Of a stretch of DNA of 64,000 nt, positions 43,725 through 49,477 are shown piece after piece (position 1 is the first letter of the stretch; every line of letters starts with the position of its first letter). The position numbers and the translations under genes are program-made. The stretch is from sequence record MN022785.1; one strand, written 5' to 3'. This stretch comes from Escherichia phage VEc20. Below the pieces are notes generated by a model, which saw only the letters and a program-made list of their open reading frames with translations, was not told the origin of the DNA and did no database searches.

Positions 43725-44041
43725 AAGTCCTCAACTTGAAAATCGTCTTTAAACAATCGGTTAACTATATGAGCTATTATATCACCATGACACGGCTTTG
43801 GTTTACATGTGCATCCTAGCCTCATTCCGCGTAAAGGCTCTAAATGTGCTTTAGTTATTTCTCCGGATTTAATTCGACGTATAAAATCTTTTTTGAATAA
43901 TTCAATGGCAGCCTCCCGGCTGCCAGCATCTTTACCGACGTAATTTCCCCAAAATGTACCGCGGTGAATATTAATATCAAAGTCGGATTTATATTTATTC
44001 ACTACCTGGCATAGACGGCCCGCGCGACGATAATTCGTCAT
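43715..44041 (-). CDS. hypothetical protein with Cys/His motif
   Basis: 108 aa; [13 protein letters not shown] motif. Confidence 0.5.
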
Positions 44042-44270
44042 ATTGTTTTTCCGTTAAAACAGTAATATCATAGTAACAATCAGAAGAAGTTTTAACTGTA
44101 GAAATTTTATTATCAAAATACTCACGAGTCATTTTATGAGTATAATATTTTTTACCATAAATGATAATAGGCTGATTTGGTCCTGGAACTTCTAACTCGC
44201 TTGGGTTAGGAAGTGTAAAAAGAATGGCACCAGAAGTATCTTTAAATCGTAAAATCATATATCCTCTCAA
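43995..44270 (-). CDS. hypothetical protein
   Basis: 91-aa ORF. Confidence 0.45.
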
Positions 44271-44281
44271 TTAAATTAAAA

Positions 44282-44593
44282 TTATACCGCCATTTTTCCT
44301 TTCAAGACACCGTGGGATTGATAATCTTTGAGAACGAAATCTTTAGGCCTAAGTTTAAGAACATATTTTAATTGTTCTTTAGTAGAAAGATATCGGAATT
44401 TATAAGGTAGACCACTTATTACCAGCTCACAAAGCTCTTTAGGTTCACGCCTCAAAATTTCTTTACATTGTTCTACGTGATTCATATAGATATGAGTATT
44501 ACCACCAGAAAATATCAAATCTCCTGGAATAAGATTACACATCTTAGCTACAATATGCGTCAAGGCAGCGTACGAGGCAATGTTGAACGGTAG
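44282..44593 (-). CDS. td: thymidylate synthase, exon 2
   Basis: in-frame continuation LPFNIASYA... after intron; exon1+exon2 = 286 codons. Confidence 0.9.
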   Translation of the reverse strand, partial: LPFNIASYAALTHIVAKMCNLIPGDLIFSGGNTHIYMNHVEQCKEILRREPKELCELVISGLPYKFRYLSTKEQLKYVLKLRPKDFVLKDYQSHGVLKGKMAV

Positions 44594-45609
44594 CATTATG
44601 TTCAGATAAGGTCGTTAATCTTATCCCGGAATTATATCCAGCTGCATGTCACCATGCAGAGCAGACTATATCTCCAACTTGTTAAAGCAAGTTGTCTATC
44701 GTTTCGAGTCACTTGACCCTACTCCCTAAAGGGATAGTCGTTAGGCATTTATGTAGAACCAATTCCACTTATCAGATTTTACACGGTAAGTAACTAATCC
44801 TGATGAAATTTCAAAATGTCTAGCCGCATCGGCTGCACATTCAAAAATAATCCCATCGCATGAAATCTTTTTGATGTTAGCTGGCTTTTTGCCTTTCATC
44901 TTTTCAGATAGTTTAGTTTTAGTTTTTTCTGAATGTTTGTGATTAAAGAACGGGTTATTTTCACCTGAACGTTTTCGGCACTTTCCACAAGTATCGGCCG
45001 AAGATGGTATGCGAACACCGCATTTACAAAACTTGTGGTTTTCTGGATTCCATCGGCCATTTTTACTTCCGTGTTTACCATAAAGAGCTTTCCGACCATC
45101 AGGACCAAGCTTAAGCATCTTAGCTTTAACAGTTTCAGCTCGTTTCTTAGCAATTTCTTCTTTTAATGGATGATTTGAAAGCACATCGCCAAAAGACGCA
45201 TCAGCAATATTATATCCATTAATTTTAGAATTTAGCTCTTTAATCCAAAAATTTTCTCGTTCAATAATCAAATCTTTCTCATATGGAATTTCTTCCAGTA
45301 CAGAGCATTCAAAAACATTACCATGTTTATTAAAAGACCTTTGAAATTTTATAGAAGAGTGAACACCGTTTTCAAGGTCTTTAAAATGTCTCTTCCATCT
45401 TTTCTCAAAATCTTTAGCACTTCCAACATACACTTTACCGTTTAAAGTGTTTTTAATCTGATAAATTCCGCTTTTCATAAACACCTCTTTTTATATAGAA
45501 GTATTTATTAAAGGGTAGTCCTACAATTTAGCACGGGATTGTCTACTAGAGAGGTCCCCCGTTTAGATAGATTACAAGTATAAGTCACCTTATACCTAGG
45601 CCTAAATTA
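44594..45609 (-). mobile_element. td group I self-splicing intron (1016 nt) carrying I-TevI
   Basis: 5' intron sequence TAATTTAGGCCTAGGTATAAGGTGACTTATACTTGTAATCTATCTAAACGGGG... matches T4 td intron from memory; ends in G before exon 2; length 1016 as in T4. Confidence 0.9.
44741..45478 (-). CDS. I-TevI: intron-encoded GIY-YIG homing endonuclease
   Basis: MKSGIYQIKNTLNGKVYVGSAKDFEKRWKRHF... matches I-TevI from memory; 245 aa. Confidence 0.9.
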   Translation of the reverse strand: MKSGIYQIKNTLNGKVYVGSAKDFEKRWKRHFKDLENGVHSSIKFQRSFNKHGNVFECSVLEEIPYEKDLIIERENFWIKELNSKINGYNIADASFGDVLSNHPLKEEIAKKRAETVKAKMLKLGPDGRKALYGKHGSKNGRWNPENHKFCKCGVRIPSSADTCGKCRKRSGENNPFFNHKHSEKTKTKLSEKMKGKKPANIKKISCDGIIFECAADAARHFEISSGLVTYRVKSDKWNWFYINA

Positions 45610-46158
45610 ACCCAAGAAAACATCTACACTGCGTTGATACCACTGCAAATCCAAATAGCCATTACGCACATTAAACTGATAGAACATATGACAAGGCGGT
45701 AATGCCATATATTTAAGTTCAGCTGGATTCCACGCAGAAACAATTTGTCGCCTATCATTCGGCAGTTTTTTAATACGATCAATAACTTCTACAATTTGGT
45801 CTACACCGCCAAAATCACGCCACTGTTTTCCATAAATTGGACCAAGTTCACCGCTATGGTATCCTAAATCTTTTGCTTGATTTTCGTAATTTTCATCCCA
45901 GACTGTTTTGCCTTGAATTAATGAATCATGCTGAATTAATCGTAAATCATTGACATTTGTGCTTCCTGATAAAAACCAAAGTAGCTCAGCAATGCATGCA
46001 TTCCAGGCGAGCTTTTTAGTTGTTACTGCAGGAAAACCTTTACTTAAATCCCAGCGTAATTTAGTACCGAACAAAGCAATTGTTCCTGTGCCTGTTCGAT
46101 CATCGGTTTCATAGCCATTTTCAAAAATGTCTTTAATTAAATCTTGGTATTGTTTCAT
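45610..46158 (-). CDS. td: thymidylate synthase, exon 1
   Basis: 183 codons ending ...VDVFLG at the 5' splice site. Confidence 0.9.
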
Positions 46159-46203
46159 TTAGTACCTTATATAAATTATAATACATTTTATGAAGCTAAA
46201 TAA

Positions 46204-46563
46204 TCAATACGGTTTAGCATCAAATTTTCTTTCGATTTCAGGAGTGAAATATAATTCTTTACCGCGTTTAGAAAAGCGACCAATAATATGATAATTATTC
46301 TCATCAAACGTGATATTACCAATATCCATAGCTTTCAACCAAATATCGATATTTCTATCCAGCTTTATGTCAAAATTCCAATACGGAGAACTATTACCGA
46401 AAATACTGCAAGCGGATTCAGTGAAACAACTGCTATAAATCTTGTCTTTAGGAACTACTAATTGATAGACACCTTTAATAAACTGAGGACCTTGCCATTT
46501 TGGCTGTTTTGCGTCTTTTTCTAATAGAATAGGATAATAATTAAAGTTCATATTTTCCGCCAC
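46204..46563 (-). CDS. hypothetical protein inserted between frd and td
   Basis: 119-aa ORF occupying a junction that I recall as a direct frd/td overlap in T4. Confidence 0.5.
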   Translation of the reverse strand: MAENMNFNYYPILLEKDAKQPKWQGPQFIKGVYQLVVPKDKIYSSCFTESACSIFGNSSPYWNFDIKLDRNIDIWLKAMDIGNITFDENNYHIIGRFSKRGKELYFTPEIERKFDAKPY

Positions 46564-46571
46564 GCGTTATT

Positions 46572-47398
<827 letters not shown>

Positions 47399-47408
47399 AT
47401 TATTTTCC

Positions 47409-47651
47409 TTAAATAGACTTTTTCACAATTTTCCAATCAGCTTTAAACTGCTCGACGTCAGAATGGTAAATCCAGAATCCTGCGCTTTCTCCGTCTTCAT
47501 AAAGAGGACATCCATCACATTCATCTTCCCATCCCATGCCACGTAAAAGGTGTTCAGCTTTTTCAACAAGTTCAGAATCTTTACCGATGATATTAAAATA
47601 CCATTTACCTCTAACTTCTGAATCTTTGATGCTCTGGCGTTGTAATCTCAT
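47409..47651 (-). CDS. hypothetical protein
   Basis: 80-aa ORF. Confidence 0.45.
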   Translation of the reverse strand: MRLQRQSIKDSEVRGKWYFNIIGKDSELVEKAEHLLRGMGWEDECDGCPLYEDGESAGFWIYHSDVEQFKADWKIVKKSI

Positions 47652-47807
47652 TTTATTCTCCTTAGCAAGCTTTAATCAAAAGATATAAACAGACCAACAT
47701 AACTGCTGCCATAATATAAGGTGCGAACATTTTCTTTTCTCCATTAGTTTTGATAGGGTAATAGTATCACACTACTACCCTTCTGTAAACTACTTTTTGA
47801 AAGTTTT

Positions 47808-48155
47808 TCACAAAAGTTCAATGATTTCATCTACATTGTTTTCGTCAACAATGCAGTGAATTTTTGTTACGCCAGAAACTTTGTCTTTGACTTCATCTTC
47901 TTCAGAAGTCGGTTCTTTATACTCACGAAAACAATGAAATTCGTCTTCACAAACGTTAAAGTAAAAATGCTTTCCATTTGCGCATTCAATGTGTTTTATT
48001 ACTCTAAATCCATCAACAAAGAAAGCTTCTTTAACTTCAAACCATCCGCCATTTTCTTGAATAATTTTAACTATTGCTGAATTAGAACGTGGGCGATAAT
48101 TAATAAATGTATCAATAAGTCTTGGAACAAGTTCATACTTTTTACCGATATACAT
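47808..48155 (-). CDS. hypothetical protein
   Basis: 115-aa ORF. Confidence 0.5.
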   Translation of the reverse strand: MYIGKKYELVPRLIDTFINYRPRSNSAIVKIIQENGGWFEVKEAFFVDGFRVIKHIECANGKHFYFNVCEDEFHCFREYKEPTSEEDEVKDKVSGVTKIHCIVDENNVDEIIELL

Positions 48156-48199
48156 TATGTTTTCCTCATTTTAACGGGGCTGTAATAGCCCCTTGATAA

Positions 48200-48490
48200 T
48201 TATTGTTCAATCAATCCCATGTAAAATTCTGCGTCTTCAGAATCCATACCATCACAATATTCATTAGCCATAAAGCGGGTGAGGTCTTCAAGAGGACCTT
48301 CAATAACGATTTGAATACTCCAAAACTTAGAATCTTGCACGCTTGTGATACTAAGTTCAGGATAACGATTACGAATAATTTCTTCGATATATTCAAAATC
48401 AACGATGTCAATATCAACTTTAGCCATATTATTTTCCTCTTTAATCATCAGCAGTATTGCCGATAGTTGTATAGTACCATGGAAGGACAA
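48200..48490 (-). CDS. hypothetical acidic protein
   Basis: 96-aa ORF. Confidence 0.45.
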
Positions 48491-48530
48491 GGATGTAAAC
48501 CGTTTTGTGAAAAAATTTTTGAAATAAAAA

Positions 48531-48549
48531 GGGGACCTCTAGGGTCCCC
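48531..48549 (-). terminator. hairpin GGGGACC-TCTAG-GGTCCCC downstream of gene 32
   Basis: perfect 7-bp stem. Confidence 0.45.
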
Positions 48550-48571
48550 AATTAATTAGTAATATAATCTA

Positions 48572-49477
48572 TTAAAGGTCATTCAAAAGGTCATCTAGGT
48601 CCGTGTCATCAGCACTAGATGAACTGCCAGAGCTTGAGCTCATAAAATCATCTTCAGTTTTTGTATTGAAGTCATCAACATTGAATGCATCCAAATCATC
48701 AGCAACTTTATCAGCTTTCTTAGCAGCAGTTGCAGCAGCACCGCCCATCACAGCAGTTCCCATAACTTGACCGAATTTAGTATTCAGTTCTTCAAATGAT
48801 TTGAATTTATCTTTAGAAGTCATTTCAGAAAGGTCAACCATTTGTTCGAACAGTTCTTTCTGGAAAGATTCATCATCAATGTTTGGAATCGCAGATTGAT
48901 TCAGGAATTTAGATTCATCGTAGTTACTAAATCCGGAAACTTGTTTAACTTTCAGTACAAAGTTAGCACCTTCCCACGGACAAGTTACATCAACCGGAGT
49001 TTCACCCATTTCAACATCAACCGCAATCATTGCATTGATTTTATCCCAGATTTTCTTACCGAAACGATATTTAAATACTTTACCTTCATTTTCTGGAGCA
49101 GCTGGGTCTTTTACAACAAGAATATTAGCCCAGTAAGAAGTTTTACGTTTAACAAGACTGTACTCTTTATTGTCAGTGTTGTACAGATCATTTTTACTGA
49201 TGTACTGACATACTGGGCAAGAATCGTAATCACCATGGGTAGATGAACATGTTTCAATATACCATTTACCATTTTTCTTGAAACCGTGATTTACAAGAAT
49301 TGCGAATGGTGCTTGTTCATCATTTTTAGACGGAAGAAAACGAATTACTGCTTGACCGTTACCCGCATTATCGAGTTTCAGTTTCCACTCGCCTTTATCT
49401 TCAGAAGAAAAACCTTTATTGCCATTCAGTTTAGCCATTTGTGCAGCAAGTTCAGCAGTAGATTTACGTTTAAACAT
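48572..49477 (-). CDS. 32: single-stranded DNA-binding protein
   Basis: 301 aa; [23 protein letters not shown]... matches T4 gp32 from memory; acidic C-terminus. Confidence 0.95.

Follow-up and report, generated by a model that had tools for sequence, protein, structure and literature searches.

The gene between frd and td in Escherichia phage VEc20 is, on balance, best explained as an accessory gene of the nucleotide-precursor operon that was inherited vertically in this phage and lost in T4, and whose product would act as a binding helper. The gene, labelled X here, was studied in a stretch of 64,000 nucleotides of sequence record MN022785.1, referred to below as the window. An earlier note on this DNA had proposed that X was a recent insertion into a conserved junction. 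The junction is indeed a site of gene gain and loss, but a recent insertion in this phage was not borne out and loss in T4 is favoured. X is already known, as an annotated hypothetical protein of a small family of T4-like phages, and is the phrog_1928/RB32ORF229c protein of T2, RB14, RB51, RB3, AR1 and others, from which nothing sets it apart. Homologues are labelled in GenBank as 'hypothetical protein' or 'RB32ORF229c', with ar1_242 the name used in AR1. No relevant paper on RB32ORF229c, on phrog_1928 or on the frd-td junction turned up in a literature search, and the review of Petrov et al. (PMC2993671) lists frd and td only as genes of auxiliary metabolism.

The locus is laid out as follows, in the order of transcription.

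47808-48155, minus strand: frd.2-like ORF (Pfam FRD2)
47761..47789, minus strand: nearest upstream T4-early-type promoter-like site, TTTACA-17-TACTAT with TG, a consensus match only
47409-47651, minus strand: frd.1 (DUF5417)
47153-47398, minus strand: 81-aa ORF, phrog_3183, no Pfam match, ATGA overlap with the frd start
46572..47153, minus strand: frd, dihydrofolate reductase (DHFR), 193 aa, C-terminus ...ESVYK* (Pfam DHFR_1, E 3e-19)
46567..46578, minus strand: left direct repeat, TAAATGAAA(T)AA, at the frd stop (exact 9-mer 46570-46578)
46552..46571, minus strand: frd-X spacer, 20 nt (AATAACGCGTGGCGGAAAAT), corresponding to the frd tail still translated in RB3 and F2
46204-46563, minus strand: ORF as first read, GTG start, 119 aa (ORF list and sequence)
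46552..46563, minus strand: possible 4-codon N-terminal extension of X from GTG 46563, probably untranslated here
46204..46551, minus strand: X, the 115-aa phrog_1928 protein, ATG at 46551, stop TGA at 46204-46206 (ORF list, HMM, selection)
46159..46203, minus strand: X-td spacer, 45 nt, with promoter-like TTGATT-18-TATTAT (promoter scan)
46150..46161, minus strand: right direct repeat, TAAATGAAA(C)AA, at the td start (exact 9-mer 46153-46161)
45610..46158, minus strand: td exon 1 (ORF list; collinearity with intronless td stops near 45608-45610)
44741-45484, minus strand: I-TevI within the td group I intron (I-TevI domains found)
44282-44596, minus strand: td exon 2 (ORF list)

The first 576 nt of frd are 94.8% identical to T4 frd at the nucleotide level. 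I-TevI has its GIY-YIG, zinc finger and DNA-binding domains. An Rfam scan of 44000-48600 found no RNA elements and, at E up to 0.1, gave no group I intron match in 44600-45610 even though td is split, presumably because the long intron ORF breaks the match to the model. T4 has only a gap of ~70 nt between frd.1 and frd and lacks the 81-aa ORF found there in the window; since it lacks X as well, T4 is reduced on both sides of frd.

A 360-bp frame separating frd and td, as first described, is present, but it has two possible starts, and ATG 46551 (115 aa) is likelier to be the start of X than GTG 46563. Starts of the ATG 46551 type are used in all GenBank annotations checked, and the homologues in Mosigvirus SF and in the metagenome locus L011 begin at the equivalent methionine. 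GGCGGA lies 4 nt 5' of ATG 46551, and no Shine-Dalgarno-like sequence was seen ahead of GTG 46563. One relative, L012, has a 119-aa form initiated by ATG at the codon equivalent to GTG 46563.

X is a genuine protein-coding gene under purifying selection. Comparison of the window with Bas38 revealed 11 synonymous and no non-synonymous differences within X, and dN/dS was 0.09-0.14 against L011 and L012, to which X is 63-66% identical. The only family matched is PHROG phrog_1928, labelled as of unknown function in PHROGs v4 (HMM, E 9.5e-36; residues 8-115 aligned to profile positions 2-125 of 126). Scans against Pfam (E up to 10), NCBIfam and PADLOC gave no match to X, in keeping with the initial description of an ORF with no recognisable motif. 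The family is small, accounting for only 51 of the 50%-identity clusters in a set of 1.84 billion representative proteins, and is specific to the T4-like phages (Straboviridae): all members with an identified source come from T4-like phages or from contigs with T4-like gene content. Even members of only about 25% identity retain the invariant motifs, and the family HMM found nothing besides X in positions 139000-147000 of T4 and in the whole 64-kb window. A frame open by chance might be suspected from the lack of any known domain and the weak Shine-Dalgarno sequence, but this reading is refuted by the selection on the gene (a dN/dS of about 0.1), the conserved family and a confident AlphaFold2 fold, and its probability is practically nil.

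Attempts to place X among the T4-like phages showed that it is the reference phage that departs from the rule. The T4 genome (NC_000866) has no gene between frd and td, which share an ATGA overlap as stated in the earlier note. When the junction was compared across T-even genomes most relatives of T4 proved to carry the ORF. X was found by tblastn in 588 of 50,697 phage records, about 362 of them at ≥90% amino acid identity. A further 156 records cover 80% or more of the 3 kb of the window that run from frd through X to td and include the td intron and I-TevI. The direct T4-type junction was found with a 50-nt probe across it in only 35 records, comprising T4 and its laboratory derivatives, RB55, RB59, vB_EcoM_112, G28, F1, HY03, SG1 and a few more. 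With 362 carriers against 35 records of the T4 type it is therefore T4, and not the VEc20 window, that is unusual. The X protein is 100% identical in T2, RB14, RB3, KIT03 and others, and in T2, RB14 and RB3 it occupies the same locus. Filled and empty junctions both occur within each of Tequatrovirus, Mosigvirus and Dhakavirus. The slot is empty, with the ATGA overlap, in Mosigvirus RB69, Dhakavirus MX01 and Gaprivervirus PSD2001, which represent the three closest genera, and in these phages the frd product ends ...VYK*.

The geometry of the junction can be compared directly between T4 and the window. The T4 junction is exactly that of the window minus the 417 nt between two copies of TAAATGAAA, one at the frd stop and the other at the td start; removal of one repeat together with the 408 nt between the copies reproduces it to the base. 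A repeat search (family D2) showed that in extended form the repeats are identical at 11/12 bases, with a spacing of 417 nt. The 9-mer is a common gene-boundary motif that joins a stop to ATG-AAA, and nine copies are present in the window. Neither a transposase nor terminal inverted repeats were found at the ends of the X cassette, so that X is flanked by a direct repeat of 9-12 bp without the other marks of an IS or MITE-like element.

Divergence within Tequatrovirus tells against a late arrival. X and its flanks have diverged to similar degrees, with dS between the window and RB3 of 0.18 for X, 0.23 for frd and 0.14 for td, and between the window and Bas38 of 0.20, 0.16 and 0.17 respectively. 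The frd of T4 is 96.5% identical to that of Bas38, a carrier of X, whereas the window and T2 are 94.4% identical and RB3 is only 91-92% identical to any other phage; the T4 frd is therefore nested among those of X carriers. Ungapped frd identities for F2, CJY920 and JS98 are deflated by indels, and codon-aligned values were preferred. Given the repeat geometry, the matched dS, the nested frd and the absence of transposon signs, the polarity at the junction was probably that of a loss of X in the T4 lineage. X in the window would then be a resident, vertically inherited Tequatrovirus allele, which T4 and its closest kin would have lost most simply by recombination between the 9-bp boundary repeats TAAATGAAA, an event that removes 417 nt and recreates the ATGA overlap of frd and td.

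Several observations speak for the reading of X as foreign or mobile DNA that recently entered a conserved ATGA junction in the VEc20 lineage. The empty junction is common to T4, RB69, MX01 and PSD2001, the flanking repeat of 9-12 bp resembles a target duplication, X (31.9% GC) is more AT-rich than its flanks (37-38%), lateral entry of X can be demonstrated in Mosigvirus SF and phage NHEP36, and the window's X is nearer to L011 and L012 than its frd is. However, the allele is shared by hundreds of Tequatroviruses in which it has kept pace with its flanks, the same slot is filled in at least 11 other T4-like lineages, the 9-mer is an ordinary boundary motif unaccompanied by transposase or terminal inverted repeats, and the flanks of T4 nest among those of carriers. 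The 'recent' part of this reading is thus largely refuted, and the reading as a whole is improbable. RB69, MX01 and PSD2001 share the X-less ATGA junction and the ...VYK* ending of frd, so the empty slot could be ancestral to the T-even-proper clade and X have been regained later; X may also have been lost long ago and regained at an early date. The tree of X conflicts with those of frd and td, the window's X being 63-66% identical to L011 and L012 where its frd is only 48% identical. A caveat to any argument from nesting is that recombination is rampant in this region, as the mosaics ECO07P1, CJY920 and F2 show, which makes such arguments weak.

The edges of the gene vary among carriers. In RB3 (L026, 47-661) and F2 (L027, 44-661) frd is 11-12 codons longer, ends ...VYKNEITCGGKYEF* and overlaps X by 11 nt, whereas the window and T2 have two A's fewer in an A-run, so that frd ends ...VYK* and a 20-nt spacer follows. 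The ATG of the ATGA at the frd stop (46572-46574) and the first six bases of the spacer together read ATG AAA TAA (46566-46574). The idea that these bases were a vestigial td start, left as the scar of an insertion, was dropped, as RB3 and F2 translate the same bases as part of the frd tail. The X-td spacer measures 45 nt in T2 as in the window, 44 nt in RB3 and only 13-15 nt in F2, SF and NHEP36. The additional ~30 nt in the window include a TATAAT-like and a GCTT-containing sequence and may represent a promoter inserted ahead of td.

Beyond Tequatrovirus the association of X with frd is old. The homologue search proposed in the earlier note was productive: 11 or more further T4-like lineages have a homologue at the same frd-td position. 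In seven other genera, represented by the following phages, the homologue lies directly 3' of frd at 31-46% identity.

Kanagawavirus, phage ZX14
Mosugukvirus, phage PM2
Jiaodavirus, phage JIPh_Kp122
Gelderlandvirus, phage Melville
Marfavirus, phage VAC36
Moonvirus, phage CF1
Winklervirus, phage Kc304

X also follows frd directly in Edwardsiella phage PEi20 and in the metagenomic T4-like contigs L011 and L012, and it does so as well in the very distant L014 and L015, where identity to the td of the window is down to 30-34%. X and frd overlap by 1-23 nt in most carriers outside Tequatrovirus. Between X and td most of these lineages have another ORF, Y, a tandem phrog_1928 paralogue sharing with X the motifs QKKW, HGxY, GN and GRFxKxG..F.P; both Y and the distant members of X match phrog_1928. 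A further small gene, Z (phrog_9550), lies ahead of td in L011 and VAC36. In JS98 (NC_010105, L018) an unannotated ORF of 68 aa occupies the frd-td slot at ~1596-1802; its start codon lies in the ATGA that ends frd, and it shares 81% identity with the phrog_9550 gene before td in L011. The ancestral home of phrog_1928 would be the slot 3' of frd and 5' of td, which in many genera holds X and Y in tandem, sometimes followed by Z and usually with overlapping stop and start codons.

The same slot has also seen traffic between genera. Mosigvirus SF and phage NHEP36 carry X within otherwise RB69-like flanks, where the ATGA at the end of frd supplies the ATG of X. For the window and SF, dS was 0.74 for X, about 1.8 (1.78) for td and saturated for frd, and between F2 and SF it was 0.12 for X as against 0.79 for td. 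With dS of X below that of the flanks across genera, X must have crossed genus borders after the flanks diverged. Three mosaics break sharply at the frd/td junction:

ECO07P1 (L023): frd T2-like (96.7%), X absent, td Dhakavirus-like (89.8% to MX01)
CJY920 (L024): frd F2-like, X absent, td Dhakavirus-like
F2 (L027): frd mosaic and in part JS98-like, X of the SF-type allele, td Mosigvirus-like

Crossovers probably took place at GTRTATAAATGAA and TAAATGAAACAATA, two short boundary sequences that are conserved, and the slot is a hot spot of lateral exchange among T-even genera. Carriage of X by homing of the I-TevI intron was considered and rejected for SF, F2 and NHEP36, because these phages are intronless and their td is Mosigvirus-like up to the intron site.

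Three BASEL records (MZ501052, MZ501066 and MZ501089; Bas38, FriedrichMiescher and KarlGJung) label X a 'putative homing endonuclease'. An intergenic site, polymorphic presence and an age younger than that of the flanks are hallmarks of the seg and mob genes of T4. X resembles seg and mob in lying between conserved genes, in being present or absent within genera and in moving faster than its flanks, and it has the sporadic presence and lateral spread expected of a free-standing homing endonuclease that invades empty frd/td junctions. Such an identity is nevertheless very unlikely. Unlike seg and mob, X has no nuclease motif (EDxHD included) or catalytic residue, and it has deep, stable synteny with frd and tandem paralogues, both untypical of homing genes. 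No GIY-YIG, HNH, LAGLIDADG or PD-(D/E)XK domain was found with Pfam at E up to 10, the paralogues of X gave no match to Pfam, NCBIfam or PADLOC, and a scan of 16 members at E up to 1 found no nuclease domain. Conserved Asp, Glu and His residues are lacking among 71-77 family members, which argues against any nuclease and against the BASEL label. The protein has only 115 aa, and its predicted barrel-like fold is unlike that of known homing nucleases. The label therefore appears unfounded. Another parallel is offered by frd.1 (DUF5417), frd.2 (FRD2), frd.3, nrdA.1 and nrdA.2 in the gene 32-frd-td-nrdA region, which have the operon context and size class of X, vary among T4 relatives and are of unassigned function. 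X and Y differ from these genes in being unrelated to them in sequence, in being coupled to frd and in that they alone lie between two enzymes of the thymidylate cycle.

Structure prediction, which had also been proposed at the outset, gave a confident AlphaFold2 model of X from an alignment of 71 sequences (pLDDT 93.2, pTM 0.86). The model has strands at residues 6-12, 27-34 and 62-64, a helix at 68-77 and further strands at 80-82, 86-96 and 99-104, and the protein is of 13.6 kDa with a pI of 8.5. Alignments of 71-77 members showed W19, G91, K95 and G97 to be invariant and L9, G27, Y29, F93 and F102 to be nearly so (90% or more). Of the motifs shared within phrog_1928 (QKKW, HG(I/V)Y, GN, GRFxKxG..F.P) the first two read QPKW and KGVY in the window. 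A BFVD structure search retrieved only uncharacterised proteins of T4-like phages. The modelled layout may distantly resemble that of OB folds (Teb1, Cdc13, RPA, SSB/PriB, HIN, S1), and the conserved W, Y, R, F and K residues are so placed as to hint at OB-type binding of ssDNA, RNA or oligosaccharide. No terminator is predicted between X and the early-type promoter-like site at 47761..47789, and X would be expressed early in infection.

From the model and the gene order X can be pictured as a non-catalytic beta-barrel-plus-helix protein, made early along with DHFR and thymidylate synthase (TS), that would aid dNTP supply, without being essential to it, through binding to the DHFR/TS enzymes or to single-stranded nucleic acid. 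That X is a non-catalytic binding protein aiding the nucleotide-precursor machinery is a tentative proposal, in which the link to DHFR and TS comes from gene order. A role as an anti-defence or host-range cassette comes close to this in likelihood. Such a 'moron' would have no functional tie to folate or thymidylate and would occupy a slot that is merely permissive and prone to recombination; presence and absence within three genera, the recent spread between genera (seen in F2 and SF) and the character of the gene, which is small, AT-rich, in an early context, dispensable in T4 and without an enzymatic motif, all agree with it. T4 and RB69 do without X, which is thus dispensable there. The polymorphism within genera and the spread between them are explained just as well by an anti-defence or selfish cassette as by a binding helper. 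The place beside frd has, however, been kept across very deep divergence and X is usually translationally coupled to frd, both of which count against a merely permissive slot, as does the absence of a PADLOC match, though the PADLOC library is without anti-defence genes; on its own this reading is rather unlikely. A bolder and similarly doubtful suggestion is that X and Y are a third component, so far unrecognised, of the phage thymidylate-cycle module, a small OB-like adaptor tethering DHFR and TS to each other or to gp32-coated ssDNA, or else a selected counter-defence cassette. As an adaptor X/Y would be co-translated with DHFR and act within the dNTP-synthesising complex. Either version, if true, would account for both the deep synteny with frd and the recent sweeps across genera.

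The finding is mostly corrective of a T4-centric reading. The reference phage T4 is atypical at the frd/td junction, and genes that appear 'extra' by comparison with T4 should therefore not be read as insertions unless the relatives have been checked. The locus shows that overlapping stop/start motifs (TAAATGAA) can serve as breakpoints for precise gene loss, and such motifs are probably also breakpoints for the exchange of cassettes between phage genera. The phrog_1928 family is tied to the DHFR gene across deep divergence yet dispensable in T4, which makes X an inexpensive candidate to test as an accessory factor in the nucleotide metabolism of phages.
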